DNA from: a virus
IMG/VR virus record: IMGVR_UViG_3300023313_000003
Coordinates: 15,486-79,485 of that record
Direction: 5' to 3' (one strand)
DNA: 64,000 nt
Every line of letters starts with the position of its first letter. The stretch's first letter is position 1. Under the pieces are notes generated by a model that did not search any database, was not told the DNA's origin, and was given only the letters and a program-made list of their open reading frames with translations. The position numbers and the translations under genes were made by a program. This document shows positions 1 to 64,000 of this stretch, piece after piece.

Positions 1-1
1 A

Positions 2-955
2 CTTCTGAGAGGTCTTTAGTATTTGACCATAATCAACCATAACAACATCAAAAGGAAATTCTTCTTTAACATCTTCACATAAGGCTATAAATTTTTCTAA
101 AGTATAACTCCAATCCCCCATGTGATAAATTCTTATATCGTCTTTGTATTCTGATATAAATTTGTTCTTTTTCTCTATTTCTTTCTCATTTAGATTATTA
201 AACCTTACTCTTCCATAAGGAACTTTAATTGCTCTTGAAGCAATTCTTAATAAAGGCTGAGTATCTTGGCCTTCAAGATTTAGATATAAAACTTTGAATC
301 CATCTTGTAAGAATTTCCATGAAGAGTTCAGTAAAAATAATGACTTACCAACATTTGTCCCACCAAGTACAACAGTTAAAGTTCCTCTAGGGATTCCCCC
401 ACCCATTGCTCGATCTATATCTGGAAGTCCTAACGCTAAAAGCTTATCTTCGTTCTCTGCTGACTCTTCCATAACTTTAGTTAAATCTTTTAATGAGAAG
501 TATTTTTGATTATCAAAATCGATACCTTTCATTGCATCAACATCTTTCTCTATATTCTCTAAAATCTTATCAGGGTCTTTAAATTGGCCATTAACTAATT
601 TTTGGTTGATTTTGAAAGCGATTGCCTTCTTTACAAATTTAGCTACATTTTCCTTTATGTATTTAAAATTACGCTTTATTTGTGGCTTCTGAACCTTTTT
701 TAATAACGCTTTATAATCCTCAATTTTATCTTCATCAAACTTAAATAACTCATTTTCCATCATAGAATAAGTTACATAATCATATTCTGCATATAATCCT
801 TTAACTAAATCAAAAAGTAATCCTATTGTTTTATTTGAAAAATAAGATTTCTTCAATAAATCTAAGGACTTCTTAGCAAAAGTAGGATCTTCTACTAATA
901 TTTGAATAACCCCTAACTGAAAATTTGCATCGTAATTAAATTGAATTTCACTCAT
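2..955 (-). CDS. DnaB/T4 gp41-like replicative helicase (runs off the window's left edge; not in ORF track)
   Basis: Manual translation from ATG at 955: MSEIQFNYDANFQLGVIQ...LGLPDIDRAMGGGIPRGTLTVVLGGTNVGKS (Walker A)...VLYLNLEG...VVMVDYGQIL (DnaB motifs H1a/H2). Confidence 0.9.
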   Translation of the reverse strand, partial: MSEIQFNYDANFQLGVIQILVEDPTFAKKSLDLLKKSYFSNKTIGLLFDLVKGLYAEYDYVTYSMMENELFKFDEDKIEDYKALLKKVQKPQIKRNFKYIKENVAKFVKKAIAFKINQKLVNGQFKDPDKILENIEKDVDAMKGIDFDNQKYFSLKDLTKVMEESAENEDKLLALGLPDIDRAMGGGIPRGTLTVVLGGTNVGKSLFLLNSSWKFLQDGFKVLYLNLEGQDTQPLLRIASRAIKVPYGRVRFNNLNEKEIEKKNKFISEYKDDIRIYHMGDWSYTLEKFIALCEDVKEEFPFDVVMVDYGQILKTSQK

Positions 956-999
956 ACTTATCCTCTTGATATTGTCTGCTTTATTTTGGTTTTAATAAC

Positions 1000-1515
1000 G
1001 TAATATATATTGAAGAGATATTCAATAATTATTTTAACTTAAATTTTGAACAGTTAACTTACTAAGTTTACTATAATATTGAAGAATTTTCAATTTTTCT
1101 TTGTTGAAGATATTTTCACCTTATTATTTCCATGCTACCCTATCAAAACAATTCAAAAGAATACTTAAATAAATTTTTAAATATATAATCACCTCGATTC
1201 GGTTGTTCCAACCTCTCGGCGATTAAATGATGGCTTCGCCATTTAGTCAAATAATCTTCAAACATCCTTGAAGATATTTTAAAGTTAACTACTTCTCTAA
1301 ATTTAAAGCGCAGGAGTGACCGACACCATCGGTGTCAACGACAAGCATAAAATTTTTCTATACATAAATACTTATCGCAAGGATATTGGTCTATCTTCGT
1401 TGAAGATATTTATCCCATTAACATTAAAGATTCACTTAATGAGATGTAATAGATATGTTTAATTGGTCACTTACGGCTATCGCCACCTTGGGGTGGCGGC
1501 CTAGTTCCGTAATGT
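1000..1515. other. Hairpin/repeat-rich intergenic region between divergent helicases; candidate replication origin or control region
   Basis: Five TTGAAGA copies (1010, 1079, 1104, 1268, 1400). Hairpins at 1201-1213, 1230-1242, 1254-1275, 1322-1336, 1393-1407, 1481-1498. No long ORF. Confidence 0.45.
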
Positions 1516-1560
1516 GGAAATATATCTTGTTATTTAATTATTAATTAACTAGAATTAAAT

Positions 1561-2991
1561 ATGATTAAAATTGAAATAGGCAATTCCATATCAAGCGTTA
1601 GCTTTATCCCAAGACAAATTTTTTCTCTTGTTCATAAAGAATTATCTTTTTACGATATGGGTATTTATTTTAGAACAGGAAGATGGGATAGAGCAGTTTC
1701 TCCTTTAATGGTTGATAATAAATTCCCAACTGGTTTAGTAAGAAGACTTTGTTTCATTTTAAATAATAATAAATTTCAATTTAAAATAATAGATAATAGG
1801 ATTCGTCCTAAAATAAATCACCTTGCTTTACTTCAAGGAGCTTATGAACCTACTGCTTATATTCATCAGAATGAAGCTGTCCAAGCGTTTTTAAACTCTC
1901 CCTCTGGTAGAGGAATTGTTGTTCTTCCAACTGGAATGGGAAAAACTAGAGTCATGAAAGACACCATCCAACAATTAGGAGTTCACACCCTAATCATAGT
2001 GCCTAGTCTTAATATTAAAAGACAAACACTAATCTATTTAAGTGAGTGCTTTGGAGAGAGTAAGGTCGGTTTATTTAAACGTAATACTTCAAATAAACCT
2101 ATAAGTATAGCTAATTTAGATTCCTTAACTCGTGCGACTAAAGATGATGTTGATCAATTTGACTGTGTGTTTTTTGATGAATGGCATCATGAGGCTTGTC
2201 AAACTGCTCACGATATAAATGAAAATATTATTAGTGATATATATTATAAGTTTGCCTTAACTGCTACTAATTTTAGAAATAGCAAGAATGAACAAATTCT
2301 ATTAGATTGTATTATGGCCAACGAACTTTATAGCATGTCTCCTGTTGAAGCAATGAAGTTTGGATATATATCAAAGATTAAATATTACAGACAAAATATT
2401 CAAGATATTAAACCATTAATTGATCTCGATAATTATGGCCCATTCGGATTACCTGAAAATGAATTAGAAGAACTATGGGAAAAGAAAAAGGATTCATATA
2501 AATACCATGAATTATATAAATTATATATATCTGAGAATGAAGAAAGAAATAGCAAAGTAATCAAACAAGCAAATAGATTAACAGACAAAGGATTATCTAC
2601 CTTAACCTTAGTTAAAGAAATTGCTCATGGGCAATTACTCCAATCTCAAATTAAAGATTGTGTATTTGTTAATGGCCAGGAGGAATCTACATTCAACTAC
2701 GATGCAATTCAAGCCTTCAATAGAGGTGAGATTAAAAATTTAGTTGGAACATCTGTTATAGGTGAAGGTGTAGATACTAAAGGTGCCGATTGTGTAATCT
2801 TAGCTAATGGGGAGAAAGCTAAAACTAAGATTATGCAAAATATTGGAAGAGTTGTTAGGTTAAAGAAGGGTAAAGAATTTGGATTAGTATTTGATTATGA
2901 AGATACAGGTCAAAAAATTATAAAGAAACATTCAAATACTCGTAAAAGAATAGTTAAAAAGTGCTTTAATGAGAAAGCGATTGAGACTTAA
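1561..2991 (+). CDS. SF2 helicase, UvsW-like
   Basis: LPTGMGKT, FDEWHH, TAT and QNIGRVVR motifs; N-terminal FPTGL motif typical of phage UvsW-like proteins. Confidence 0.88.
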   Translation: MIKIEIGNSISSVSFIPRQIFSLVHKELSFYDMGIYFRTGRWDRAVSPLMVDNKFPTGLVRRLCFILNNNKFQFKIIDNRIRPKINHLALLQGAYEPTAYIHQNEAVQAFLNSPSGRGIVVLPTGMGKTRVMKDTIQQLGVHTLIIVPSLNIKRQTLIYLSECFGESKVGLFKRNTSNKPISIANLDSLTRATKDDVDQFDCVFFDEWHHEACQTAHDINENIISDIYYKFALTATNFRNSKNEQILLDCIMANELYSMSPVEAMKFGYISKIKYYRQNIQDIKPLIDLDNYGPFGLPENELEELWEKKKDSYKYHELYKLYISENEERNSKVIKQANRLTDKGLSTLTLVKEIAHGQLLQSQIKDCVFVNGQEESTFNYDAIQAFNRGEIKNLVGTSVIGEGVDTKGADCVILANGEKAKTKIMQNIGRVVRLKKGKEFGLVFDYEDTGQKIIKKHSNTRKRIVKKCFNEKAIET

Positions 2992-3172
2992 TAGCATCTA
3001 GCAAGGTTTTATTTAACTCTAAAGTTACCCCTATAAATTCTACTAAAGGATCTGATTCTCCTCTAAGAGAGATTGCAGTTTGTTGAGATTTTGCTAATTC
3101 ATTACATCTTTCAAGAACCATATCTATACTTGTGAAATCCATTGATTTTTCATTATTCATTTTCTTCTCCAT
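2966..3172 (-). CDS. Hypothetical protein
   Basis: 68-aa ORF at the end of the tail operon, overlapping its neighbour. Confidence 0.55.
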   Translation of the reverse strand: MEKKMNNEKSMDFTSIDMVLERCNELAKSQQTAISLRGESDPLVEFIGVTLELNKTLLDAIKSQSLSH

Positions 3173-3449
3173 TTATTATTAATTGTAATTCTTCTGATAA
3201 TATATCTTTGTCTTCTTTAGGAATCGATTCATAAGTATCAGAATCAACTTGAACAAACTCTTCTACTTCTTCAGGCTTATAAACTTCTAATACAACTTTC
3301 GTTTTCAATCTATTAACAACAAGTCCTTCTGAAGAAACAATTCCAACAACTTCTTCAGGATTAAGAGAAGCTTCTTCTATCGCTTGATCTTCTGATATTG
3401 CATATTTAAAATATGGTTCATTTTTATATAAAATTAAGTGAGTAAACAT
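3153..3449 (-). CDS. Hypothetical protein (possible fibre-associated/chaperone)
   Basis: 98-aa acidic ORF translationally coupled to a collar-domain gene. Confidence 0.65.
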   Translation of the reverse strand: MFTHLILYKNEPYFKYAISEDQAIEEASLNPEEVVGIVSSEGLVVNRLKTKVVLEVYKPEEVEEFVQVDSDTYESIPKEDKDILSEELQLIINGEENE

Positions 3450-5376: not shown

Positions 5377-5384
5377 TTAAACTC

Positions 5385-9139: not shown

Positions 9140-12100
9140 TTAGATTTTATTAAAATTAAATAGCATCCCTTGTATATTTGAAGGATCTTCATCACTAACT
9201 TTACTTAAAGTAACTTTTAAGGCTAAGTCTCTTCCTGTAGAGATTGTAGATTTATATTTTAGTAGATGATCTTTAGTTTCGACAACAGAAGTTGCTTCAT
9301 CAGTAAAAGCTAATTCTAATTGAGCAATATTTCTATCATAAGAAGCCCATGTATTTTGTTTTAGTCTTCTATAAATAAACTTATCACCAAGATTACGAAC
9401 GTGTTTAACATCCATCTCTTCTTCCATTCTAATTAATCCATGATATGCTGGTCTATCTGCTCCAACTATCAATTTCATAACACCAAGCTTTCCATGCCAA
9501 TCGTAAGATCTATTATAATAATATCTTCCGATATAACTATATTGATAACCTGTTGAGTTGTTTCCAATTACTTTTCCACCTTTCCCTCTATTTTTGTCTC
9601 CAAAGATAAAAGGTAAATCTTCCCAAGTTACCCCATCAAGACTTCTTTCAATAAAAAATCCAGTATCAAATCGTCTACCATATCTCACAAAATGATGAAT
9701 ATCTTGCCAAGCATTTGATATAGTTTTATACGCAAAGCCAGCACCAGTTGGGTTCTCTATAATATGCATATAATATTGTTTAGTGTTTATCCCGAATTGA
9801 CCAAATCCCTCTCTATTAAATGCCATATTCCATGTATTATCCATGTCAGTAGCATTAGGAGACATTTCTATTTCTAAGCAAAAATCTCTTGCGCCAGGGA
9901 ATAAATCATACTCACCATATCTATACATTAAATTATGAGCAGAAACTTGGTACGCAAATCCAGCAAGGAAATCAGCATCTTCAATTATTCCACCAGCAGC
10001 TCCAGTATTTTTTATCATTAAAGCTGCGTTAGCATCAATCGATTCGATATATACACCACCAAAAGCTCTGTATGAAAATTGTCCAACTGGATCTGCTATC
10101 TTACCTGTTCTTTCGTCTAGTCTTTGAGAAGAAGTATCTCCTAGATTTACACCCCACTTTAAAAATGGATCAGCCCTATTCTGATCAATACCTAAAATTT
10201 TAGCTGGAGCGGCGATAGGAAGATTATAAATCCCTGCACTATCATCTATTTCACCATAAAAAGTTCTAGGACTTGATCCTTCACCAGTGTAAAGCCCATT
10301 GTTTGTTTGATAGAAACCTGAGTTCCTATAAGTAACCATCATTTTTTTATTTAATGGATCTCCTACCATTTCCAAAGTTCCTTCAGAATCTTCAGAACCC
10401 CAATGATTAACTAAATGAGATGGCCCCATCCAGTTTGTATTATTTTGTAATTGGTGAATTGGAGAAATATAATAATCATAAAATCTCATAAACATATTAT
10501 AATTTTGATTCTCCCATACTCCATTATTTAATCTAAGATAATTAGAACTAGCTTGAGAAGTTGCTGCAAATCTAATCATACCTCTAAAAGTTGTGCTTAA
10601 GCCTGTTGGATTAATCTCAAGAGCATCTGAAGGATTCCAGTTCCCTTCAACAATAAAAGCAACTTGTTGTCCTACGTTTAATCTTAAATCATCAAAATTA
10701 AAGAAGTGCCATTTAACATCATCATATTGGCATATATCAAACTCTCTAATTTGATTTGATGTTGCTATAACATTTGTTTCATCTGGAACTCCAGCGACAA
10801 CTGCAACACATTTAATCCAGATATAATGATTAGGATTATAACAAGCTTCAGAAAAATAAGTTCGAGCCATATATAATGACATTGTTCTTATATGGAATTT
10901 TCCATCAAAAGATCTTGTAGCATAACCTAGACTATTACCTCTATTACTAACTGAAGGAACAGTGAATAACTGAGCTAACTTATCTCCACGATCAAGACTT
11001 ACTGCTGCTTCAGATAAATGAACAAAATTTAATGCGCCAGGTGCTTGTTCATAATGATAACCTTGAAGTTGAGTATAGTCTGGGATTTTTATAAAATATG
11101 ATTGATGATAATCATAGTCATAATTTATATCTCTAAAATCATTGACAATATAAATTGTATTTCCTACCACTCTCATTCTTTCTTTATAAAATCTTGCCCA
11201 TGCACCTGTGCTTGAAGATAAAGATCCATCATAGCTCCAGTTTTGATAAAGAGATTGGTTCAGATATAAATAAGATCCAATATCATTGTGATAAATATAA
11301 TCAGTGTGATCTAAATTATGAAGCCAAACAGGAAAAGCTCCAAAGTCTGTAGAAATATCAGTAGTGATTACTAAAGGAACTGTCGCATTTGTTAATGTAC
11401 TATTAGTTATTGTTACATCTATTTGTTCTTTATTGAATAAGAAATCAATAACAAAACCTGTTGCCCAATCTCCACTTACAGTTACATCACCAATATTAAG
11501 CCAAGCATAATTAGCAATTATAGCTGCTTCAAAGTCTACTGCTGTCATTCCAAAAGTTAACATACCAATTTTTGTTTCAACAGGAGTCGCTTGATCAAAT
11601 CTTTCTAATGAGAAATCAGCAACACCAGCATCAGGAATCGCATCAAAAGTAAATTTAGTATGTGAATATCTACCACTATGAGTTCTGCCTAAATTTAAGG
11701 TATATAAAAATAACTCAGGAGATGTACTATCTTGTTTAAGAATAACTAACTCTTTACTATCTGTTATAACCCAACTTAAGAATCTATTAGTAGCTGCATG
11801 TTGGTGAGCAAAAGATGTTTGTGTTTTAGTTCCACCTTTTAATGAGGCAGTAAAAGCATTTTCATATCCTATATTGGTATGATTAGTTCCTGCATTATCA
11901 ATCATTGCTTGAGGAATAGTAACCGCATAAGCATGACCATTGTTATGATTTGTTGACCAGAATAATTTCTTTTCACCTTCTATTATTTCCCAAAAGAAAA
12001 TTGCAGGATAATGATGTTGCCAGTGATCAACTCCAATTAAATATGAATAATTCATGTAGACCATATCTTTATTAGCCCAATCAATTATATAATGATTACA

Positions 12101-18871: not shown

Positions 18872-21800
18872 GATGCAATAACTCCTTTATCACTTATAAT
18901 TGGTTCTCCACGTTCTGAAGCTTCTCTTATTCCTTCAATTACAGCTTGCTTAATTCCTTCAATATTTGAATCCCGATCAGCATTAATAGTAAAATTATAA
19001 GTATTTCCACCAGAACCTTCTTTTCTGTCCTTAAGATAACCTGTCAAATCCTTATTCGCTTCTGGCTGAAGAACCCTTTCTCCACCTTTTAGCAAGAAAG
19101 ATTTGTCACTCATAGATTGAGGGATTGAGTCCATACCACCATGAGCTTGACCTCCACCGAATTTTTGAGCTTTAATCTGTGCAACATTAGCAATACCAGC
19201 AGCAACAGTTACACCAGCAAGTAAAGGCCCAAGAAGAGGCCCTGCTCCAACTGGAGGTGGAGCTAAAGCTGCTGTCGCTCCAGCAAAAGTATTCATTATA
19301 CTAGAAGTAATGGCCGCGGCTTTACCTACCTCGAACATATCTTTGTCTTTACTTCCTCTTAATTTGGAAGTCATGTCTAAGATCTTACCTGTATTCTTAT
19401 ATTCGCTAGTTTGTTGAACTGCCATTATAGCACCAAGAGCTTGACCATTTTTAATTTGACTCGCTCTCATTCTCGCTCTAAATTGTTCAGCTCTATTCCC
19501 TGCATCTTGAGCAATCTTAGCTTTATCTTGGTAAAATCTAAGTTCAATCTCTTTTAACTTGTTCTTATGTTGGATTTCTCTTTGCTCTCTCGCTAATCTG
19601 AATTGATCTTCAGTTATTACCTTGTTCTCTTGTTCAAATTGAAGCCTTTCTAATTCTAACTGATGTTGCTCTTCTTGTTTTGCCATTTGAGCAGCGAGTC
19701 CATCATCAGTTAATCCTAATAATTCAGCTCTTTGAGTTTGAAGTTCCAACTCTTTCATTGTTTTTTCTTGAATAGCTGCTAATTTTGTATCATGCATTTT
19801 TTTCTGCATTTCAATTTCAGCATTAGCTCTTGCTTGTCTTCTAGTTGAGAGTTCTAACTCTAATTGATCTGAAATTTCATTAAAAGATTTTTGCATTTCT
19901 ATCTCAGAAATTTTTCCTTGCATTTTTAATGCTTTAATCTTATTCATTCTAATTTCAGTATTAATAATTTCAGCTTGGTCTTCAGCTCCAGCACCAGCAG
20001 AAGTTCCACCAAGCAATCCTGCTTTAATATTAGCAAGTGCAGCTTGTTTTTGTTGTTCTGAAGATATAGAAAGAGCCATCTTTGCTTGAAGGTTTTGTTC
20101 AAACATTTGAAGTTCTGTTTCATTAGCAGCAAGAAGAGCTGACTCATTATTTGAAAGACCATACTTAGCCTCAAGCTTTCTTTTAGTAATAAGTTCTTGA
20201 GTTAATAACTCAATTTTCATATCTTTTATATTTACTGCCTGATCTCGCTTCATTTGAGCGATTTCCATTTCTGTAGTAAAAACTTTTGACATTTCTTGAT
20301 CAAGACCTATTTGAACTTGAGCTATCTGAGAATTTCTAGTTTCTTGCTGTATTTTTATTTTATTAGCTTCTAGTGCTTCCATGGCAGCGAGTATTTTTTC
20401 ACTATTTTTGTCAACAGCACCCCAATCTGAACCACTTTTAATTAATGCTTGATTTAATTCTTGTCCTTTTGTTATTATTTTTTGAAGTTGTGCTGAAAAC
20501 TTAGCTGAATCTGCCTTAATTTTTTGTAGATTTAAAGATGGAGTCAAATCTGAAACAAACTCAAAAGCAGCTTCTCCTTCTTTAACTATTTTGTTGAAAG
20601 AAGAGGATAATTTTTCTAAATTTTGTTTTAAATTTTTTACTGAATGACCAACTTTATCAGAAGCCCCTGCTGTGGATATAAAACCATTAACAACATCACC
20701 AGCGACTTCTCCAGATAAAGTTCCCATTGTTTCTGATAATTGCATTATAGAAGAAGTTAATCCTTGCATTTTTTTATCAGACATTGCTAAAGAACTAAGT
20801 CCAAGATAATTAAAAATCTGAGATAAACCCCCAACTGCCAAAGTTAATGTCATTATTCCATTAACTAATGCTAATATCCCTACTGCAACTACTTTTATTG
20901 CAGTTCCTAACATTCCACTTAATATCTCTGCAAGAGAAGTTGAAGATTTATTAGCTTTCTCTGCTGAATCTGCAACAGAGGCAAAAGCTTTAGATAGAGT
21001 ATCAACAACTTTAGAAAATATCTTAAATCTTTCTTCAAGCATTGTTACTGCTTTATATAAGGCCGCGGCAATAGCTATAATTATTGTAATTTTAATCAAT
21101 AATACTTTATTAGCAACAACCCATTTCCAAGTCGCAATTGTGGCTGCTTTTATAGAGGAAATTAACGATACAGCGATACTTCTAGCTGTTAATTTACTTG
21201 CTGCTTCCATTCCTAATATACTTTTAATAGCACCAGCTACTTTTACTTTAAGAACACTAAGTCCTGTTCCTGCGACTTCCTTTAAAGATCCAAATTTCCC
21301 TGCAACTCCAGTTACACCCATAGCCATTTCAGATAAACTTTTATTAATAAAAGGTAACTGAGAAGAAAATACTTTCATTCCAGCAGAAGAAGCTAACCCT
21401 GCGTTTAAAGCACCCAAACTTGAGGTAACTAATCCTATCAATAATGAGTTTTGAAGAAGAACCCCTCCAACTTGCATTAATCTCCCCGATAAAGCTTGGA
21501 TAAAACCAATAGCAGGAAGAATTGGTTTAACTAAATTAGTAAATCCTGATGTTAATTTTGCTAACCCCATGACTACTTGACCATTTATAATTTGACCGCC
21601 TTTACCTAATTCTTGCATTAATTCTTTTGTTGCATTTTTTTGAAGTTTTAATGCTTTTGAATAAGTGTCAGCATTACTTGAAGCAAACCCAGCGGCTAAT
21701 CCTGCTTGCTCCATTAAAACATTGTATCTTGCTTGCCCTTTTTCTACATCTCCAAGTTTATTAAAATTATCTTTTAACTCTTGATTAAGATTTGATTGTT

Positions 21801-27626: not shown

Positions 27627-28421
27627 TTATAAGTCCCAAGTATTTCTTTGCATTTGATTAGCACTACCGAATGAATAGTTAATATATTGATCGAGCTTTT
27701 CGATAATATCTTTAGGTATTCCATCACTTAATTTAGAATAACTTTCACCCATTACACCCTTTGCTGTTACTCCAATATCTTTATTTTCTCTTTGGTAATA
27801 CCAATACTCAACTAATTGTAAGGCCGCGAGTATGAGGTCATAAGGAATATCAGTGCATGCAATAGTTTTAAGTTCTAAATCTGCATCAACACCAATAGTG
27901 AAATCTTTACACCAACCAGCAAGATACTTCATACGAATAGCACCAAGAACAGAACCAGAAAAGATCTGGCCGACTATATGTTTTTCATTATCATCTCTTA
28001 AGACTACATCATTTCCTATAATTCTTAATTGAGTATCTGTTATTTTTTGCCTTTTATCCGCAGAACCACGACTAAAATAAACTGAATCAGTCAGAATAGT
28101 CGGATCTGAGAATCCTCTATTATAATCAATTCTGATTTCACTAACCTCAAGAACAGGCCACATTTGAGGAAGAATTATATTTGATGAATTACCATCGCTA
28201 ACTTCTGTAAATTCAGTAGCTAAAACTCTTGTGTCAATTATTGATTCTATTTTATCACATGCTGCATTTATAAACATTTCTAAGCGTCTAACTCTTTTAA
28301 TATTATCAGGAGAAGGAGTCACACCAGCGACACTAACTTTAATATCTTTTATGTTAATCCAATCAGCAGCTTGGACAACATCTATCCAACAACTATCTTT
28401 TAAAATACTAGTATATGCCAT
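27627..28421 (-). CDS. Head-tail adaptor/connector
   Basis: I.AA...IE; L.QWPV.EV; Y.AG; IP.DL..A.L.LV..WY.QRE. Confidence 0.8.
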   Translation of the reverse strand: MAYTSILKDSCWIDVVQAADWINIKDIKVSVAGVTPSPDNIKRVRRLEMFINAACDKIESIIDTRVLATEFTEVSDGNSSNIILPQMWPVLEVSEIRIDYNRGFSDPTILTDSVYFSRGSADKRQKITDTQLRIIGNDVVLRDDNEKHIVGQIFSGSVLGAIRMKYLAGWCKDFTIGVDADLELKTIACTDIPYDLILAALQLVEYWYYQRENKDIGVTAKGVMGESYSKLSDGIPKDIIEKLDQYINYSFGSANQMQRNTWDL

Positions 28422-34607: not shown

Positions 34608-37223
34608 TTAGAAATTAAACATAAAATCAAAAGTATTTTGAGTCCGATCAATATCTAGTATATTGTCTATATAATTAGAGTCGCCTTTCATGTGGTAAAT
34701 AACTGAACATCTGCAATTTATAACTTCTTCTGCTGGGCCTTTTGCTTCTCTAGGGAAGTCTAATCCATTACTAAAAGACTTATCAGAGGCAACTTCTTCA
34801 CCATCTAAGATAACATGATTTGCTTTATCTCCATTTAAAGGACTTCTAACTTGTCCATCTTGTGCGGTTATCCAAGTTTTTAATAAGTTGTCTTTAAAAT
34901 TAGGAATTTCATTAGACAACTTTTCTACTTTTATACTTTGACCTTGAGAAACTGCTGTTAAAACTTCAGTTCTTGCTATAGTATTCGCTCTACCTTGTTT
35001 AATTTCATCAAAAGTTTCCTGTATCTTAAGAGATAATTCTTGAGAGGAGTCTTGAGCTTTAAAAGAATCGATAATAACCTTTTTTATTTGTTCTCTTGTT
35101 ACTTCAGTTACTCCTGTAATTTTTTCTGCTGCCCTTTTTTTTAACCAATTAGTAGCTAACTCATTAGGATATGAAGTTGCTTGTTTAGGTAAAGTTCTGG
35201 AGAATCCTAACTCCATAGCTGCTAAATCTGAATCTGAAACTTTTACACTTTCTATCTCTACAAATTGAAGAATCCAATCAAAAAGAGGAAGCCCTTCAAT
35301 ATCGCTATCATCTTTAGTTAAACTTTTAAAATCAATTTTATTTATATCTTCTAAAACTAAAACCTTCATTCTATCAAACATTTCTTGAACGTCTTTTAAC
35401 TTAGCTTCAATTAGAGGTTTAACTCCATCTCCAGTTAGTGCTTTACAATATTCTTGTAATTTTAATTCTTTCTCATTTAAGTTTTTTTTTTCTTCATCAT
35501 CTTGTGAAGCTTTAGGATTTTGTGATTCATCTTGAACTTCACTATTAGGCTTAACTGCTTCTGAGTTTTCTCCCCCTGGCGCAAGACCTTCAGCTACAAC
35601 TTGCTCTATGGCCGCGGTTAATGCTTGGCCTAATGGAACTCCTGAAGCAATTAAGATTCCTACTAGTTGAGAAAGTCTTTCCGCATAAGTAGCCCGAGTT
35701 GGTTCAATGTCTGATAATGTAGCTAAATCTGGTTGAGGAGCTTCAATCTTAGTTTCAATATCGTTTGGAGCAGAAGCTTCAGTATTAGAATCTGAAGAAG
35801 AACTGCCATACATATCTTGAGTGTTTAAAGTAGAAACAATTAAAGGAACTTGATTACCCATTTCTACTGCTGGTTTTTTCCAGATCTCTTGTCTGATTTC
35901 ATTTATTGACCATCCTGCTTTACTCATTAAGATTGCAGTTTCAGCCTTGTCTTTTATACTTTCTTGAAGAGCTTCAATCATAGAAGTATCAAAAGAAAAT
36001 TTAAGATTTCTTTCAACATTTAGAATATCTAAATCTAAGTTGAAAGCATCTTCAATAAACCTTTTCATAGGTATTACTGTATCTGTCCAAAAGATCTTTT
36101 CTTGAACTAAAGCGTTCGCATAAGTCGCTCCATCTAAGAGGCCAACTTTTACTGGTGGAACTCCATAAGCTGACAAAATTGGTTCTTTATTAAATTTAGA
36201 AAATTCAACCAAAGAAGTCTCGCCAGGGTTCTGTTCAATAGTTTGGTAATCCATACCTTCAGGAAGGATTAATGTCTTATGATGATTATTTTTTCCAGTG
36301 TAGTCATTTTCAAACGAACGAGTTAATCTTGTTAGCTGATCTTTAGTGAGTTTTTTAGTAGTTTTTATTACTCCACCAAGTCTTGCACCATTCTTATAAA
36401 ATCTAATCATGTGTTCTGAAGTGAATTTATCAATTAATACATGTTTAAGCACAGGAACAAGAGGAGCAAGCCCATTAAAAGCATCAGTAGGATTAGGAAG
36501 TCTAATATGAATTACTTCATCTAAAGTAAATTGATACATTCCATCTTCAGTTTGCATTGAGTACCCAACTAATTCATAAGTGTTACCATCAAATACAGGT
36601 TCAACTAGTGAGGAGTTAAGTCTATACATAGAATGTACGTTTGATTTTCTATGAGATCTTATTTGTTGTTCTAACGCAGAGACTGGCCTTGAATCTCCTT
36701 CAATTTCACCTTCTTTAGTTTTAAGAATAAAAGCTTGACCTGTAGCTAGAAGGTCAATTAAGACCAACATATAAAATTCAACAGGCAATTGAGATTGATT
36801 TGGGTAAGTTAGTAAATCATATTCTGGTTCTGCTGATGCATCTATCCAAGTTTCTTTGTAAGTAGTTGTTTCATTTCCTTTATCATCTGTAAGTATTTGT
36901 TTTTGTATCTTTCTTTTCTCTAATTTGATGGGAAGTGTTGAAATAGTCTTTGCAATTGTGTGAATTACTATAAAAACCCACGTTTCAGAGGCATAAAGAC
37001 GCTGTAAAGTCGCTGAATTGATCGTTTCACCAACAACCCCCATTATATCAGAAGAAGAGTTAGAACTGCCATTACTGTAGTTTTTAGTGTCTAAAGCCCT
37101 TAATTCTGCCTCTATATCGCTTTCATCTAGCTTATTCTCTAGTTCAAGTATCTTATTTTCCAAAATATCAATCTTATTCTCTTGTGGATTTTTTAAGATT
37201 GTTTTTTTTATTTGTTTAATCAT
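34608..37223 (-). CDS. Portal protein (HK97-type) fused to a MuF/SPP1 gp7-like minor head domain
   Basis: EVIHIR, GLAP, FYKNGA, YGVPP and SINEIR in the portal part; C-terminal RANTIARTE, KTW...D..VR, H...DG and EVINCRC in the MuF part. Confidence 0.92.
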   Translation of the reverse strand: MIKQIKKTILKNPQENKIDILENKILELENKLDESDIEAELRALDTKNYSNGSSNSSSDIMGVVGETINSATLQRLYASETWVFIVIHTIAKTISTLPIKLEKRKIQKQILTDDKGNETTTYKETWIDASAEPEYDLLTYPNQSQLPVEFYMLVLIDLLATGQAFILKTKEGEIEGDSRPVSALEQQIRSHRKSNVHSMYRLNSSLVEPVFDGNTYELVGYSMQTEDGMYQFTLDEVIHIRLPNPTDAFNGLAPLVPVLKHVLIDKFTSEHMIRFYKNGARLGGVIKTTKKLTKDQLTRLTRSFENDYTGKNNHHKTLILPEGMDYQTIEQNPGETSLVEFSKFNKEPILSAYGVPPVKVGLLDGATYANALVQEKIFWTDTVIPMKRFIEDAFNLDLDILNVERNLKFSFDTSMIEALQESIKDKAETAILMSKAGWSINEIRQEIWKKPAVEMGNQVPLIVSTLNTQDMYGSSSSDSNTEASAPNDIETKIEAPQPDLATLSDIEPTRATYAERLSQLVGILIASGVPLGQALTAAIEQVVAEGLAPGGENSEAVKPNSEVQDESQNPKASQDDEEKKNLNEKELKLQEYCKALTGDGVKPLIEAKLKDVQEMFDRMKVLVLEDINKIDFKSLTKDDSDIEGLPLFDWILQFVEIESVKVSDSDLAAMELGFSRTLPKQATSYPNELATNWLKKRAAEKITGVTEVTREQIKKVIIDSFKAQDSSQELSLKIQETFDEIKQGRANTIARTEVLTAVSQGQSIKVEKLSNEIPNFKDNLLKTWITAQDGQVRSPLNGDKANHVILDGEEVASDKSFSNGLDFPREAKGPAEEVINCRCSVIYHMKGDSNYIDNILDIDRTQNTFDFMFNF

Positions 37224-44457: not shown

Positions 44458-45072
44458 TTAAACTTTACAGGGCATTAATACGGCCTTTTCAATGCCTTGT
44501 ATTGCTTTTCCAGTAACAAGAATAGGCTTAATTGTGCAAGTATCCTTTTCAAGTATCATTTTTTTATTAATGTTAAATGTTATTATTTTTGTTTTCCCTG
44601 AATTTTCCATGCTAGAAACTAAATCTTTTAATAAGTCAAAATTAAAACCTATTTTAAAATTTTCTTCACTTTCTTTTAAATTGCCTAGAATACTATCAAG
44701 CTTTACATAATCCCGATCAATTACATTCAATTGCATTAAAAATTTATCTCCCAATTGAATAATTAAATTGTCACTTAATGAAAAGGTTAACTCGGGGCCT
44801 TCTTTTTTGTACTCTTTTAATATGGCTTTTAATCCCTTTTCATTATTTCTATTGATTATTAAGCCCTCTTTGAAATTATCAAATAAAAACTCATTAAAGC
44901 CCCTATCGTTTAATATAGTTTGATTCATGCAAAAGCCATTTGTTGATTCTAGTATTACAGTGTCATACTCTCCGGGCCGACAATTTACCCCCATTAAAAA
45001 AGTTCTTGTTTCATCTTTTGAAGCAACTTTAATTAAATTTGTAATTGTTTGAATTGTTTTTTTGTAAATCAT
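44458..45072 (-). CDS. Truncated DNA polymerase III beta sliding clamp-like protein (two domains)
   Basis: ASKDETR.FL.GV, STNG (ATDG-like), IGFN..LL.D and C-terminal VLMPCKV match DnaN domains 2-3. Confidence 0.75.
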   Translation of the reverse strand: MIYKKTIQTITNLIKVASKDETRTFLMGVNCRPGEYDTVILESTNGFCMNQTILNDRGFNEFLFDNFKEGLIINRNNEKGLKAILKEYKKEGPELTFSLSDNLIIQLGDKFLMQLNVIDRDYVKLDSILGNLKESEENFKIGFNFDLLKDLVSSMENSGKTKIITFNINKKMILEKDTCTIKPILVTGKAIQGIEKAVLMPCKV

Positions 45073-46364: not shown

Positions 46365-46404
46365 AGGCCCGGGCCTCTCTCATACGCTCTCATACGCTCT
46401 CATA
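46365..46404. repeat. 12-bp palindrome AGGCCCGGGCCT abutting a 10-bp tandem repeat (CTCTCATACG x2.8)
   Basis: Read directly from sequence. Confidence 0.85.
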
Positions 46405-56151: not shown

Positions 56152-56159
56152 ATAATTAG

Positions 56160-56837: not shown

Positions 56838-57154
56838 TTTGATGCCTCATTCGTGTATTTATTAGCAAGAGATAATGACTGAGCTTTCTTAGCTATCTCT
56901 GACTCCCCAGAAAGAACTGACTCACATCCTAACGCATAGTGCATAAAGCTAAAGATTAGATTATTCTTTACCCCTTGGATATGTTCTTCGGGAACTTCCA
57001 TCTCTTTTTCTTGTGCGCTAGTAATTTCATCCTTAACTCTATTAAAATCATCAACTAAAGAATCAAATAACATTTTGAATCTTTCTTTGATTTCTTTAAT
57101 TGTAGGGTCTTTTTCGTCTAACCATTTAATTTCTGATACTTTCATAAAAAACAA
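56834..57154 (-). CDS. Hypothetical protein
   Basis: Coupled ORF. Confidence 0.6.
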   Translation of the reverse strand: MFFMKVSEIKWLDEKDPTIKEIKERFKMLFDSLVDDFNRVKDEITSAQEKEMEVPEEHIQGVKNNLIFSFMHYALGCESVLSGESEIAKKAQSLSLANKYTNEASK

Positions 57155-58065
57155 GCCTCCATTAGCTGTTGTGGGATTATACTCACTATTCCATTTCCTA
57201 TCAACTTATATCTTTGAGTATCTGATACTTGGTATCTTTCACCTTTCTTGTTAATTCCATACTTAGTAAAATCATCAGGCCATAACATTAATCGTTCGGC
57301 TTCTACTGGAGTAATTCTTCTAAGAGAACCATCTGGTTTTACGACAAAGTTACCACTAGATAAACTCCCACAACCATCTCCAGTTGTTAAAGTATTAGCA
57401 TCATCTTCAATCCTTGCTCTATGATCTATATGGTTTTGTCTGGTGCTTCTGGAATAAGCAATAAATATCGATCTGTCTTTACGAATACCATGTCTTTCAA
57501 GGTAGTCAATGCCTTTTGGCCTAACAACTGCACGACTTCCTTTGATGAATCGTACTTGCTTGATGGGTTTTCCTCTAAGATTTCCGACAATGAATAGTCT
57601 TTTTCTTCTTTGGGGTACTCCGAACGCTGATGAATTGAGAACTTGCCATTGGAGATCGTACCCAACTTCGGCCAGCATACTTTGAATAATGGTGAAGTCT
57701 CTTCCATTATTAATGGAAGTAACATTTTCAACATTTTCCCAGATAAAATATGAAGGTTGTCGCTCTTTAAGGATTTTGACATAACTAAAGAATAATCCAG
57801 ATTTTCCTTCAAGTCCTTCTCTTGTTCCAGCAATGCTAAAACTTTGGCAAGGTGTTCCTCCTGTGAGAATGTCAAAATCGGGTAAGGTCTTTGTGAATCT
57901 TGCATGAGTCATATCTCCATAATTTTTTATTGTTGGGTAATTATATTTTAATACTGAACTAGCATATTTATCTATCTCAGAGAACCCTACTGTTTTAAAC
58001 TTTCTTGGATCTAAAGATAAATCAAATCCATTTACTCCTGAACATACAGACATAATCTTAAACAT
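57142..58065 (-). CDS. DNA (cytosine-5) methyltransferase, alpha polypeptide
   Basis: CSGVNG (I), EID, GDM, GGTPCQSFSIAG (IV), ENV (VI), PQRRKR (VIII), RRITPVEAERL and YKLIGNG (X). Confidence 0.93.
   Translation of the reverse strand: MFKIMSVCSGVNGFDLSLDPRKFKTVGFSEIDKYASSVLKYNYPTIKNYGDMTHARFTKTLPDFDILTGGTPCQSFSIAGTREGLEGKSGLFFSYVKILKERQPSYFIWENVENVTSINNGRDFTIIQSMLAEVGYDLQWQVLNSSAFGVPQRRKRLFIVGNLRGKPIKQVRFIKGSRAVVRPKGIDYLERHGIRKDRSIFIAYSRSTRQNHIDHRARIEDDANTLTTGDGCGSLSSGNFVVKPDGSLRRITPVEAERLMLWPDDFTKYGINKKGERYQVSDTQRYKLIGNGIVSIIPQQLMEACFL
57426..57905 (-). CDS. Alternative-frame beta polypeptide of a heterodimeric C5-MTase (M.EcoHK31I beta-like)
   Basis: 159-aa same-strand ORF nested in the MTase; WPKLGTISNG and SLSEILEE.P..KY motifs typical of beta subunits. 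Confidence 0.65.
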   Translation of the reverse strand: MQDSQRPYPILTFSQEEHLAKVLALLEQEKDLKENLDYSLVMSKSLKSDNLHILSGKMLKMLLPLIMEETSPLFKVCWPKLGTISNGKFSIHQRSEYPKEEKDYSLSEILEENPSSKYDSSKEVVQLLGQKALTTLKDMVFVKTDRYLLLIPEAPDKTI

Positions 58066-58979: not shown

Positions 58980-59378
58980 CTACCCTTCTATATGCTCTAT
59001 GGGATAATGATCATCTATATATTTAATTACTTTAAGATTAATATCTTCCTTGTTTGAATCAAAGATCCTACCAACCCATCGAGTAAATGATTGTTTACCT
59101 GTAGCAATAAGGCAAAAGTAACCTTCATTTGCATCAACTAGTTCTTGAAGAAAAGCTTTTTCATTTTTAGCCAAATGTTTAGTTAATGCTGAACCTCCTC
59201 TAACTTCATGAGCAAACACATCTTCCATTCTAATATGTAAAGAGATTGAAGCATGGAATCCTAAGTCAACTAGAACTTCAACAGTGTCTCCATCAATAAC
59301 TCGTACTACTTTACATAAATATCTATTTTGCTTATATAAATCATTCTTATTCATAATTACCTCAATTTCACCTGGCAC
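58980..59378 (-). CDS. Thermonuclease (SNase)-like protein
   Basis: VVRVIDGDTVEVLVDLGF...IR....A.E. Confidence 0.85.
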   Translation of the reverse strand: MPGEIEVIMNKNDLYKQNRYLCKVVRVIDGDTVEVLVDLGFHASISLHIRMEDVFAHEVRGGSALTKHLAKNEKAFLQELVDANEGYFCLIATGKQSFTRWVGRIFDSNKEDINLKVIKYIDDHYPIEHIEG

Positions 59379-60282: not shown

Positions 60283-60449
60283 ATATTTACTAAAGCTTTA
60301 TGCTGTCCACTTGTTAATTGACCATATTTAATGAGAGCTTCTTGAATTGAGTCAAGGAAACTAGTATCAAAACCATCATTGTTTGTACTTGTTTTCCAAT
60401 CATAAACAGCATCAATCATTTCCTGTGAGTCTGATTTTTCATTGTACAT
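60249..60449 (-). CDS. Hypothetical protein
   Basis: F..S.......G.LT..Q..AL.NI motif. Confidence 0.65.
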   Translation of the reverse strand: MYNEKSDSQEMIDAVYDWKTSTNNDGFDTSFLDSIQEALIKYGQLTSGQHKALVNICIKFKIGELQ

Positions 60450-60703
60450 TATGATTGCTCCAGTTTTTGTAGCTCTGCATGAAGAAAATAAAAATCAGCC
60501 GAAACTTTATCTTTTAATTTATGACAAGCATCCATCTGATCTTGTAATTTAACTAGATTAACTATGTCATCTTCTTCAAGAATCGACATTCTAGCTTTCA
60601 ATACTTTTATATTGTTTCTGTGAGTTTTTAGTTGTTCTGTTTGATTGTCTATCTCTTTTTGAATTTGCTTCTTTCTTAAATCATTTGTCATTTGTACCTC
60701 CAT
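60449..60703 (-). CDS. Hypothetical coiled-coil protein
   Basis: 84-aa ORF. Confidence 0.6.
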   Translation of the reverse strand: MEVQMTNDLRKKQIQKEIDNQTEQLKTHRNNIKVLKARMSILEEDDIVNLVKLQDQMDACHKLKDKVSADFYFLHAELQKLEQS

Positions 60704-60761
60704 ATTTAGATTATGAAGTCTATTCTGTAATTTTTAATATAAAATGGCAAGAAAATAATTA

Positions 60762-62144
60762 TTAATCATTATCATTATCCATAAAATCAAAAAAATCTTT
60801 AGGAGCTTGACCTCCCATTACACCAAGGAAGTTATCTATACTGTTAATTTCTCCAGAACCTCCGTATTCATCAGCATACCAATTGGCCATAGCAATACTA
60901 ATAACACAATCATCATGTCTCCCTGCTGGTGCTGAATAAGAGATCTTGCCTGTTCTTGTTATCTTATATTCGAACAACTCAAACTCTTGTCTTATAGTTC
61001 TTATGTTTGGGATTCTGATATTGTCATAATCACAAGATAAAATTAGTCTATTAATTAAATCATTCTTAGATTCATTAGTGAACTTATAAGGGTAAGCATT
61101 AACTGTTAAGAAGTCAGCTAATGAAGCTCCGATACCTGTTGCATCAAAGATAACGTCACAAGAATCGAACATCTTAGAAACTCTTTCTATATCTTTAACT
61201 ACTATTTTATAATCTGTTTTATTATATCTTCTATAATAATGTAGTTTTCTAGTATTAGTGTTAAGCACAGAAAGAACTGTATAATCTTTAGATTTAGCTA
61301 GATCGGCAGACAATACATATTGACTACTTTCTATTTCGCTACTATCTGGAATATCTTTCCACTCTTGTTGATCTGATTCAAAGTCTATTTGTTTTCCTGC
61401 AAATATTGATTCTAAATTCCTGAATGTTCCACCTGAGTTGTCGATAAACTCTGCATCGAACTCTTGCTTTCTAATATGTTCAGGAAGATCTTGCATTAAA
61501 TTAACTAGCAACTTAGGATAATCTGGCCTCTTCCACCAAGGTTGTTTAAATGAAATATAACTTTTTTTGTTTAAGTCCTGGCCATCTAAATATTTATAAT
61601 AAAACCAATTTTTACCCCTTGGTGTTGATATGAGAATAATCTTACAATTCTGTCTACGAGCAGTTGCTAAGATTTGTTTGTTAAAAACATCTTCAGCTAT
61701 CAAAGCAGCTTCATCTATAATAATTAAAGAGTAACCTTTTGAAACGATAGAATCTGGATTATCTGCTGATCTAAAAAATACTTTAGTATCGTTGAACATG
61801 TGAATTTCATTATCTGCTTTGAAATACTCCCAATACTTAAAGCTAGTTTCTTCACAGAATTGAGGTACGAATCGTTCACTAGTTAATTCATCATAACCAA
61901 AGAACACATCATCAACAGGAGATTTACATATCTTATAAGTAGGAGCAACCCACATAACTTGAGCCATAGGACTATGTAATAAATGAGGAATAACGATACT
62001 ATTAACAACCCATAGCGTTTTCCCCCAACCCCTAGCTGCATCTACTGTTATTACATTGGCCTGGGGATTCTTAGCTATTCCAGATAGAACTTCCATCTGA
62101 CCACCATGAGGAATATAATTTATCCTAAAAGGTGAAACTTCCAT
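60762..62144 (-). CDS. terL: Terminase large subunit
   Basis: PH.GQ, ARGWGKT, IIIDEAA, ISTPRG, QEF.AEF, nuclease DLAKSKDYT and HDD.V. Confidence 0.95.
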   Translation of the reverse strand: MEVSPFRINYIPHGGQMEVLSGIAKNPQANVITVDAARGWGKTLWVVNSIVIPHLLHSPMAQVMWVAPTYKICKSPVDDVFFGYDELTSERFVPQFCEETSFKYWEYFKADNEIHMFNDTKVFFRSADNPDSIVSKGYSLIIIDEAALIAEDVFNKQILATARRQNCKIILISTPRGKNWFYYKYLDGQDLNKKSYISFKQPWWKRPDYPKLLVNLMQDLPEHIRKQEFDAEFIDNSGGTFRNLESIFAGKQIDFESDQQEWKDIPDSSEIESSQYVLSADLAKSKDYTVLSVLNTNTRKLHYYRRYNKTDYKIVVKDIERVSKMFDSCDVIFDATGIGASLADFLTVNAYPYKFTNESKNDLINRLILSCDYDNIRIPNIRTIRQEFELFEYKITRTGKISYSAPAGRHDDCVISIAMANWYADEYGGSGEINSIDNFLGVMGGQAPKDFFDFMDNDND

Positions 62145-62145
62145 A

Positions 62146-62748
62146 TTACTTAGATTCCTCTTCAGTGTCTATTGCACTAACTTCTACTTCAATACTTGGC
62201 TTCTTCAGAATAGGCTTCTTATCTTCAGGTTGATATTCAAGCATATCTATAACTGAAGGCATACCTTCTGCTACTGCTGTTATCTTAGATGGGACTAATT
62301 TTTTATCTATATCTTTAACTTTAAGAAGATCTCTTGAGACAACTTCATGAAGCTTTAATGCTTGCTTCATTAATTGAGGAGGAACTGGTTCTCCATCTTT
62401 CAATAGCCTTAATCTTCTTTTTATATATTGAGACTGCTTAAAAAATAGTTCTCCAATATCACTAGCAATTCTTTTATATTTGATCTCACAGTCTTTCACT
62501 GTTTGAGTTACCATTTTCTCTCTAAACTCTTGCCTTTTTTTAGACCACTTCCCTACTTGAGCAACACTTTGAACTGTAGTATAGACAACATTATATTTCT
62601 CTGCTATTTGATTAATACTTAAATCGTTGGCAATATAGTCTTCACCCATTAACTTAAGTATTTCAATACTAACATTAATTTTTTCTCTGCCCCTATAATT
62701 CTTTCTTATCGCTTGCATCCCGACTTTTTCTAATTCACTCTTACTCAT
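62146..62748 (-). CDS. Terminase small subunit (putative)
   Basis: HTH (SINQIAEKYNV...TV) and W.K.R, directly upstream of terL. Confidence 0.7.
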   Translation of the reverse strand: MSKSELEKVGMQAIRKNYRGREKINVSIEILKLMGEDYIANDLSINQIAEKYNVVYTTVQSVAQVGKWSKKRQEFREKMVTQTVKDCEIKYKRIASDIGELFFKQSQYIKRRLRLLKDGEPVPPQLMKQALKLHEVVSRDLLKVKDIDKKLVPSKITAVAEGMPSVIDMLEYQPEDKKPILKKPSIEVEVSAIDTEEESK

Positions 62749-63032
62749 TTAATACTCCTATAATCCTGAAATATTCCTTCAATCATTATATCATTCATTT
62801 GAATTTTATTCATCTGTTGCTTTAAAATACTAATTTCCTTTCTAACTTCTGATTTAAGATTTTCCTCAAAAGAAACACAAGGTAGATTTATCGATGAAAT
62901 TAAAACTTCAGGTTCTTTAGTTTTCCCTTTTCTAATTAACTGAATTATAATTCCTTTGTAAGAATCCTTATACATTACAATCTTATTATAATCATCTTCT
63001 TGTATTACTATGAGATTATTAGTCATTTTCAA
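62745..63032 (-). CDS. Hypothetical protein
   Basis: Coupled ORF. Confidence 0.6.
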   Translation of the reverse strand: MKMTNNLIVIQEDDYNKIVMYKDSYKGIIIQLIRKGKTKEPEVLISSINLPCVSFEENLKSEVRKEISILKQQMNKIQMNDIMIEGIFQDYRSIK

Positions 63033-63619
63033 TCTCCAAGATATTGAGTTAGTTTAATTTTAATATTTTTCAATATATATATGACTTCAGTTTTTTTTAT
63101 TTTAGTCTGCTTGCTTATATCAATAGTGCTTTCTCCATGAACTAAATACCTGACAATAACCTTTTGCTCATTATCAGTTAAGGTATTCATTAAAACTTTA
63201 AATGATTGAGCATACCTGACCCAATCTTCTCCTGTTTCATAAAAGATTAGCTCTTCACTCTCAAACATCTCTTCAGGGCAATACAGCTTAGATAGCGAAT
63301 GTTTATATGTTTTACATTTTTTAGAAATATTTAAGAAAGCATAGTAAAGCATAGTAGAGCAGTAAGTTTCTATCTTAGCTTTCTTACTAGTATCAAAAGT
63401 CGCAACACCTTTCCAAAGAACAAGTCTAACTTGTTGAAGTAAGTCGTCAGTGTCCCATCCAAAAGTATCAAATACTGCTTTCCGATATTTGTAGATATAC
63501 TTATTAACTATATATTTCATTTCATTTTGAATGAGATGTTCTACTTTTATTCCATATTTTATATTCTGATCTGGAGTTATTGCTTCTAATATTAAAGCAG
63601 TCTTCCCTTTCTTAGCCAA
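63029..63619 (-). CDS. Phage RNA polymerase sigma factor (sigma70 family, regions 2 and 4)
   Basis: DDLLQQVRLVLWKGVATFD...TY (region 2); LTDNEQKVI......S..DIS (region 4). Confidence 0.82.
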   Translation of the reverse strand: MAKKGKTALILEAITPDQNIKYGIKVEHLIQNEMKYIVNKYIYKYRKAVFDTFGWDTDDLLQQVRLVLWKGVATFDTSKKAKIETYCSTMLYYAFLNISKKCKTYKHSLSKLYCPEEMFESEELIFYETGEDWVRYAQSFKVLMNTLTDNEQKVIVRYLVHGESTIDISKQTKIKKTEVIYILKNIKIKLTQYLGD

Positions 63620-63621
63620 AA

Positions 63622-63984
63622 CTAAACTCTTCTTTTTGGTATTCGGGGTGTGTAAAATATAAACATCAAGATAACATGGCCAACAGAAGATTGCTTCATC
63701 AGTTGAATCTTGTCGTAATCACCTTTAGCCATAAAATCATCAGTGTATTTATTAACTTCTTGAAAGGTAGATCCTCTAAATACTTCTATCTTAGTCTTAA
63801 CAAATTGTCTGCTTTCTAATCTAGGGATAACCAAGAGGTTAACAGCAGTAGAGCTATTAGCTCCCTCAGTAAACTCAGCATATTTAAGTTCATAATTATT
63901 AAGAACATAACTTATTACACGTTTTATTTCTTTAGGTTGTTTATTCCATTTTCCGAATTGGAATAAGAAGCTTCTCATTTTCAT
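63622..63984 (-). CDS. Hypothetical protein
   Basis: 120-aa ORF with AAGGA RBS. Confidence 0.6.
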   Translation of the reverse strand: MKMRSFLFQFGKWNKQPKEIKRVISYVLNNYELKYAEFTEGANSSTAVNLLVIPRLESRQFVKTKIEVFRGSTFQEVNKYTDDFMAKGDYDKIQLMKQSSVGHVILMFIFYTPRIPKRRV

Positions 63985-64000
63985 AACTATTCCTTGTCAA

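Follow-up and report, generated by a model that had tools for sequence, protein, structure and literature searches.

The phage genome and its single C5-methyltransferase

The DNA considered here, called the window in what follows, is a stretch of 64,000 nucleotides corresponding to bases 15486-79485 of IMG/VR virus record IMGVR_UViG_3300023313_000003, the siphovirus-like genome of an uncultured phage. Two facts about this genome are at the centre of the present work: a statistical rule by which purged restriction-type words survive, with a single exception, only where a GCC trinucleotide overlaps them, and the presence of one cytosine-C5 methyltransferase gene. The whole record comprises 79,485 base pairs (bp), or 79.5 kilobases (kb), and has direct terminal repeats, measured at 127 bp. 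Its base composition is 31% G+C, about 95% of it is coding, and the minus strand carries 103 of the 109 genes based on open reading frames. The source of the phage is probably a microbial mat, the sole public run holding the genome being a microbial-mat metagenome. No close relatives were found in a DNA search of a phage collection or in IMG/VR, and known phages (Tunturiibacter, Thermus and T5-like phages) share no more than 30% identity with its large terminase subunit.

The methyltransferase gene (Table 1) had been taken, in an earlier sequence-only reading of the window, for a two-frame enzyme and for the candidate writer of a methylation mark. The latter proposal stands, with the addition that this is the single C5-methyltransferase of the genome, while the former had to be abandoned: the gene is one uninterrupted open reading frame of 307 amino acids, and it is not two-frame because the overlapping frame of 159 amino acids matches no family. 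The PF00145 match extends across the whole protein (204.9 bits against a cut-off of 22, E = 2.8e-60; 195.7 bits in the genome search), and an alignment of the catalytic half to M.HhaI (2e-31) shows the motifs GGTPCQSFS (IV, PCQ), WENV (VI) and PQRRKR (VIII). The variable region, which precedes motifs IX and X and of which there is only one, is a target-recognition domain of about 85 amino acids (approximately residues 165-250), conserved only in five metagenomic proteins (P0002, P0003, P0004, P0006 and P0020) that are 45-55% identical. Only residues 4-163 align to the M.HaeIII structures 1DCT and 3UBT, the target-recognition domain being unrelated to theirs by sequence. No other DNA methyltransferase was found in the genome, PF00145 giving a single match and PF01555 and PF02086 none; likewise, no TET/JBP (5mYOX) dioxygenase was detected by PF12851 genome-wide at E <= 0.1, and no restriction enzyme, Vsr or nuclease partner was found adjoining the methyltransferase. 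A 132-amino-acid protein encoded 0.9 kb upstream (58980-59378, minus strand) matches phrog_452, annotated as endonuclease, and carries a VIDGDT-type motif; we judge it to be staphylococcal-nuclease-like, and it is no recognisable restriction enzyme or Vsr.

Purged words and their surviving copies

Word counts were compared with 300 synonymous-codon shuffles of the whole genome, which preserve each protein and the codon usage of each gene, Markov models of order 1 and order 3 serving as second nulls; unless the window is named, counts are genome-wide and expectations are those of the codon shuffle. Under this codon-preserving null, site avoidance is massive and discrete, and involves about twenty restriction-type words. 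GGWCC does not occur at all, against 26.1 +/- 3.1 copies expected; in the window, GGACC and GGTCC are absent and GGSCC is present 36 times. CCWGG shows a different picture, since its total (29 versus 26.5 expected) is unremarkable and only its context is not: all 29 copies have a G at position -1 or a C at position +1, where 7.0 would be expected, and the unflanked form, written HCCWGGD for a site with neither, is seen 0 times against 19.4 +/- 2.6 (28 and 36 under the Markov models of order 1 and order 3, respectively). In the same way CGCG is not depleted overall (6 versus 8.2), in a genome whose CpG odds ratio is 0.40, and its six copies all read GCCGCG, a context expected 0.8 times. CCGG, in turn, is reduced to 2 copies from 18.1 expected, and both read GCCCGG on one strand.

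These regularities had been noticed by eye in the window, and the computed scan, split by GCC overlap, upheld the avoidance rule, finding no GGWCC and no unflanked CCWGG. The absence of GGACC and GGTCC, for which about twenty copies had been predicted, was borne out; the CCWGG sites, put at about 24 and all said to read GCCWGG, number 24 in the window, each with its flanking G or C; all four CGCG sites of the window lie in GGCCGCG, as claimed; and the two CCGG sites, at 44972 and 46369, do overlap GCC. Two points needed correction, namely that CGCG had been counted among the forbidden sites whereas its context alone is abnormal, and that coordinates had been counted from the flanking G, one of them given as 29025 where 29005 should be read.

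Many other words have disappeared as well. TCTAGA, GATATC, AGTACT, GAATTC, CAGCTG, CTGCAG, AACGTT, ACCTGC, GAATGC and GCAN5TGC have zero copies, with 11-26 expected of each, and CATATG, TTCGAA, TGTACA and ACSGT are almost lost, while other palindromes, AGATCT, ATCGAT, AAGCTT and CAATTG among them, are present at expectation. In the window, ACSGT (ACCGT/ACGGT) occurs 3 times versus 25.9 expected, ACWGT being normal (103 versus 110), and further gapped or degenerate words are also at zero (GCAN5TGC, 0 versus 15.3; GGAN6TCC, 0 versus 7.5; GGWWCC, 0 versus 15.5). Some words are enriched: CTTAAG (41 versus 24) and CAGCAG (64 versus 32) in the window, and ACTCTCC/GGAGAGT (22 versus 5.5) in the whole genome, the last probably being part of ribosome-binding or promoter regions of the coding (minus) strand.

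The rule is visible in codon choice and even in protein composition. Gly-Pro is encoded with GGC or GGG in all 30 pairs, as had been said of those checked by eye, while GGA and GGT together make up 80% of the glycine codons. Pro-Gly, for which CCW-GGC or a preceding G had been claimed, uses CCW-GGC in 16 of its 21 occurrences, although GGC represents 9% of glycine codons; four others follow a codon ending in G, and the last one is CCC-GGA within GGCCCGG. Moreover, the Pro-Gly dipeptide is halved (21 versus 43.5 +/- 6.1 expected) and Gly-Pro is mildly low (30 versus 43.7), so that a constraint acting on DNA seems to have shaped the protein sequence. As a side observation, the codon after Pro-Gly begins with A or T in just 2 of the 21 pairs, where about 12 would be expected. 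The word GCCAGGTG, present in 7 copies, was considered as a separate motif and discarded, its abundance being explained by CCAGGT shifting into a GCC context.

When all words of 4 to 6 bases were screened for the signature of unflanked copies lost and GCC-overlapped copies kept, only CCWGG and CGCG emerged besides GGNCC. Gapped palindromes added four classes that had played no part in the sequence-only reading: GGNNCC, CAGNNNCTG, CCTN5AGG and CCAN5TGG. GGNNCC has 6 copies versus 33.4 expected, all six ending in GCC, with unshielded copies at 0 versus 21 and GGAGCC at 0 versus 4.7. CAGNNNCTG has 2 copies versus 17.4 (unshielded, 0 versus 16.4), both reading GGCCAGNNNCTG (GGCCAG...), a shielded context that accounts for only 6% of the expectation, whereas CCTN5AGG and CCAN5TGG left one survivor each, shielded in both cases (unshielded, 0 versus 5.0 and 0 versus 4.6, respectively). 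Altogether, the mark proposed beforehand covers 10 of 10 survivors in the four added classes, where chance would cover about a quarter. Since GGSCC words, which are forced, overlap five of the six GGNNCC survivors, these five can be set aside; the joint chance of the five then left out of the ten is about 1e-4. Words with a built-in GGCC escape purging altogether, as exemplified by TGGCCA (22 versus 10) and AGGCCT (11 versus 6.4).

Table 1. Methyltransferase gene, surviving sites and related features in the window (window positions; strand where assigned).
Feature	Position(s)	Strand	Remark
Genome-wide footprint	1..64000		About 20 restriction-type words purged; survivors only under overlapping GCC
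Orphan cytosine-C5 methyltransferase	57142..58065	-	307 amino acids, single frame; PF00145
CCWGG survivors, first half	2676, 3702, 4236, 9894, 11037, 12594, 16783, 18801, 25772, 25985, 29005, 32477		
CCWGG survivors, second half	35575, 36223, 38152, 40031, 40455, 43713, 48966, 49223, 52971, 59371, 61577, 62060		
GCGCCAGG, CCWGG survivor	9891..9898		Shielded by CGCC, not GGCC; Pro-Gly-Ala as CCT GGC GCA
GGCCGCG, CGCG survivor	19312..19318		Ala-Ala-Ala as GCC GCG GCC
GGCCGCG, CGCG survivor	21061..21067		Ala-Ala-Ala as GCC GCG GCC
GGCCGCG, CGCG survivor	27822..27828		
GGCCGCG, CGCG survivor	35610..35616		Also CCGCGG
CCGGGCC, CCGG survivor	44972..44978		Outer C is the second C of lower-strand GCC; Pro-Gly as CCC GGA
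GGCCCGGGCC, second CCGG survivor	46366..46375		Perfect 10-bp intergenic palindrome
CAGAGACTGGCC, CAGNNNCTG survivor	36677..36688		One of only two such sites in the genome; GGCC abuts both
GGTGCC, GGNNCC survivor	2782..2787		The sole one without GGCC, yet ending in GCC
GGCCCC or GGGGCC, other five GGNNCC survivors	10422, 29467, 40565, 42433, 44794		
Two GGCCC words	19226..19242		Gly-Pro as GGG CCN on the coding strand

The palindrome GGCCCGGGCC sits in a gene-poor stretch, at about 45.7-47.5 kb.

A candidate mark and its competitors

Seven candidate marks were compared over 19 purged classes with 94 surviving sites, and the second C of GCC, already favoured by the sequence-only reading, is the best of those tested: it covers 93 of the 94 survivors and leaves 1 uncovered site versus 194.6 expected. 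The plain GCC of that reading had to be narrowed. GGCC, CGCC and TGCC all act as shielding contexts, while AGCC is never the sole shield (0 seen versus 5.8 expected, of which CCWGG contributes 1.0 and GGNNCC 4.7), so the motif looks like BGCC rather than GCC, with the context order G > C, T >> A; indeed, BGCC also covers 93 of 94, with a smaller expected coverage (49 versus 60).

CCGG discriminates between the two cytosines. Copies whose outer C would bear the mark (GC-CCGG) are at expectation (2 versus 2.25), while those in which it would fall on the inner C (G-CCGG) are as absent (0 versus about 8.1-8.4) as unmarked ones (0 versus 7.45). This pattern matches an MspI-like enzyme, because MspI cleaves CmCGG and not mCCGG. 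As for the other classes, CmCWGG and GGNmCC are the positions marked by the cognate Dcm/EcoRII and Sau96I methylases, and overlapping methylation (Dcm and CpG), which falls at GGNNCmC, is on record as a block to NlaIV.

These observations would be accounted for as follows. Silent recoding, and even the loss of Pro-Gly, would clear some twenty Type II target words, and unavoidable or leftover ones would be kept only under an overlapping GCC. Through the overlap, a cytosine of the site would coincide with the 3′ C of GCC (CmCWGG, GGNmCC, mCCGG, mCGCG, GGNNCmC, mCAGNNNCTG), GGCC being preferred, CGCC and TGCC accepted and AGCC not. The mark would be 5-methylation of that cytosine by the single orphan C5-methyltransferase, and the DNA, marked in the previous host, would be packaged already marked. 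Thus a single mark with a short motif would imitate, or coincide with, the methylation on which several unrelated restriction systems rely for protection, the protected forms being GCCWGG, GCCGCG, GCCCGG, GGNGCC and GCCAGNNNCTG. We infer, from the sequence statistics and the gene content, that a base modification causes the rule, sits on the second C and is written by this enzyme. As the single explanation that best fits these statistics, a GCC-mark shield with silent recoding has our preference by a little. The fuller proposal is more tentative, being possible and somewhat short of even: that the enzyme has a new specificity, 5-methylcytosine on the 3′ C of (G/C/T)GCC, covering at least six unrelated restriction specificities, and that the genome co-evolved with it in its Pro-Gly and Gly-Pro codons, its dipeptide loss and its GGCC enrichment.

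The enrichment of GGCC deserves separate consideration. The word occurs 126 times versus 58.9 expected (z = 13, 2.1-fold), in excess in all three codon phases and in the unrelated dipeptides Gly-Gln, Gly-Leu, Arg-Pro and Met-Ala; only part of this excess is forced by GGWCC avoidance. GGCCGCG is positively enriched, more than tolerance would allow, with 6 copies versus 0.10 expected (60-fold). Besides the four in the window, two copies lie upstream of it, at genome positions 7557 and 15304; those at genome 7.6 and 15.3 kb are oriented one way and those at 34.8-51.1 kb the opposite way. Ala-Ala-Ala tripeptides use the rare GCG as middle codon in 4 of 4 cases, and the 8-bp palindrome GCCGCGGC has 3 copies versus 0.03 expected. 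GGCCGCG might function as a signal in the DNA (nick, Chi-like or packaging site). A very-short-patch-repair drive was tried as the source of the GGCC excess and is not supported: the loss of GGTC/GACC outside GGWCC that such a drive predicts is not seen (142 versus about 144), AGCC/GGCT is only mildly low (-13%), and there is no Vsr-like gene near the methyltransferase.

A control set of 160 fetched methyltransferase-bearing loci was ranked by GGCC observed/expected. This genome came second; the first, L164, is a 3.2-kb contig bearing a homologue of the same architecture, 50-53% identical including the target-recognition domain, and sharing no other gene with this phage. A degenerate DNA pattern for the target-recognition domain found 7 loci, of which L164 alone has the same architecture. 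The comparison, with n = 2, suggests a link between the enzyme family and GGCC. Among 166 loci, methyltransferase similarity group was not linked to GCC-flanked CCWGG (ratios 0.95-1.01). In other loci, GGWCC avoidance was weakly associated with GCC-flanked CCWGG (69% versus 54% expected, this genome included).

Some of the loci are of interest in their own right. In L012 (IMG/VR, 16 kb, 58% GC), 28 of 29 CCWGG sites read GCCTGG/CCAGGC, as do 15 of 16 in the related L022, with GGWCC at 4 versus 48 expected and 1 versus 26, respectively; this asymmetric rule is seemingly related but different. The 122-kb IMG/VR contig L162 carries, at positions 3-1916, an open reading frame open at its 5′ end, of which 637 amino acids are read and the rest is cut off by the locus edge. 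It resembles a methyltransferase and contains several segments like target-recognition domains, one of which is similar to that of the phage. An insert of unrelated sequence and another catalytic N-terminal half come after it. L166, L167 and L168 have the domain and the C-terminal part placed upstream of the catalytic part, in a permuted or tandem arrangement.

Several observations weigh against a GCC mark written by this enzyme. The frame-independent excess of GGCC and that of GGCCGCG go beyond what tolerance alone gives. L167 has a related target-recognition domain, in a rearranged gene, and no footprint. That of the phage has no match in solved structures (PDB, residues 166-307) or in 50,697 phage records, and an AlphaFold model has low confidence within it, Foldseek returning generic C5 enzymes only. 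The purging of G-CCGG can be reconciled only with a CCGG enzyme that is indifferent to methylation of the inner C, and the loss of GGWCC is explicable by plain AvaII-type avoidance, so that the shield invoked for it in the sequence-only reading is not required; of that interpretation, the mark and the single C5 enzyme are retained, while the two-frame gene, the plain GCC motif and the need for a shield at GGWCC are not. A host methyltransferase could be the writer instead. Furthermore, no natural enzyme is known to methylate GCC at its 3′ C; in the published phage enzymes, the marked C is the one adjoining G (PMC8256090).

A mark of this published type, on the C directly after G (G-5mC-C, GpC[C/T]-like), perhaps further modified and blocking enzymes whose sites begin one base downstream, is rather unlikely in our estimation. 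GpC[C/T] is the only experimentally shown 3-base C5 specificity of phages (PMC8256090), and a mark of this kind covers CCWGG, GGNCC and GGNNCC equally well. Nevertheless, judged indirectly from the sequence statistics, the first C of GCC, like that of GC[C/T], covers 83 of 94 survivors, the other 11 having no mark within the site (six CGCG, two CCGG, two CAGNNNCTG and one CATATG), and G-CCGG, which it predicts to be safe, is absent. With GCT included, it also declares safe CAGCTG (0 versus 15), GCAN5TGC (0 versus 12.7), GCTNAGC (0 versus 5.5), GCTAGC, GAGCTC and AGCGCT, none of which occurs; nor does the genome search offer a TET/JBP gene for the further modification. Any GpC would cover 90 of 94, and wrongly predicts that CAGCTG, CTGCAG and GCAN5TGC, all absent, are safe.

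An ordinary GGCC (HaeIII-type) methyltransferase, with GGCC as the only GC-rich palindrome that is licensed and the non-GGCC contexts of CCWGG arising otherwise, for instance from star activity or from the flank preference of the CCWGG enzyme, appears equally improbable. To our knowledge, phage C5 enzymes are most often specific for GGCC, and the enrichment of the word in all codon phases, here and in L164, speaks for it, as does its overlap with all CGCG, CCGG and CAGNNNCTG survivors and with 15-16 of 29 CCWGG. What it leaves aside are the 13-14 CCWGG survivors and GGTGCC, for which CGCC or TGCC is the only shield, in a genome with none of the 19 unflanked CCWGG expected; moreover, the outer C of GGCC covers 78 of 94 survivors and the inner, HaeIII-like one just 68, and the target-recognition domain is not similar to that of M.HaeIII.

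The weakest alternative, and a very improbable one, dispenses with modification in favour of flank-selective host restriction enzymes plus positively selected GGCC words (GGCCGCG, GCCWGG) or repair bias: it would draw on the excesses of GGCC, GGCCGCG and GCCGCGGC and on the strong flank effects possible in C5 enzymes and nucleases (PMC11879396), but it needs the same flank rule for eight unrelated site classes, positive selection cannot account for 195 expected unflanked sites falling to 1, and repair bias meets the counts given above and the lack of a Vsr or nuclease partner beside the methyltransferase.

Relation to known systems

What phages gain from short-motif cytosine methyltransferases has been unclear, given that most restriction sites lie out of reach of a sparse mark. 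The shield proposed here, on the second C of GCC, suggests an answer, namely that the phage deletes the sites outside the mark and keeps those under it, altering codon usage and dipeptides. If this is true, it would define a new methyltransferase specificity, make it possible to read from sequence alone which motif and base are modified in an uncultured phage, and open a route to infer the restriction repertoire that a phage has faced.

The closest precedent is that of Burke et al. (2021), who described phage C5-methyltransferases coupled to TET, with a 3-base GpC[C/T] specificity, that mark the C after G (PMC8256090). Both systems would have a phage C5 enzyme, a 3-base motif that includes GCC, and sparse post-replicative marking; theirs operates with TET and glycosyltransferases, while here there is no TET, GCT is not protective and the best-fitting base is the second C of GCC. 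In a follow-up preprint such sparse marks are deemed unlikely to protect a genome broadly (10.1101/2023.12.21.572611), whereas the present case, if true, would mean that protection of a whole genome is within reach of a sparse, motif-specific modification.

Jeltsch and colleagues found that M.HaeIII R225A loses the readout of the first G and acts on NGCC (PMC11879396), and therefore an NGCC-type enzyme is biochemically plausible. The GCC core, the variable first base and the preference for GGCC would be common to M.HaeIII, that variant included, and to the phage enzyme. M.HaeIII differs in that it marks the inner C, that its best near-cognate, AGCC, is the sole non-protecting context here, and that its domain is unrelated by sequence.

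The Bacillus phages SPR, phi3T, rho11s and H2 encode multispecific C5-methyltransferases directed against several specificities, including GGCC, CCGG and CCWGG. Those enzymes have 440-500 amino acids and several target-recognition domains, and methylate full sites; the present one, with 307 amino acids and one short domain, would protect by overlap only, the genome being adapted to it.

With the palindrome avoidance of virulent phages this genome shares many palindromes of 4-6 bp and Type IIS words brought to zero by synonymous recoding. It differs in that avoidance is context-dependent in eight classes, with GCC-overlapped copies at or above expectation, and in that Pro-Gly is depleted at the protein level. 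Finally, supplier and REBASE tables list NlaIV, Sau96I and AlwNI as blocked by overlapping methylation (Dcm, CpG). There, too, a methyl group belonging to another, overlapping motif prevents cleavage; what laboratories treat as a nuisance appears in this phage as a strategy that has evolved across the genome.

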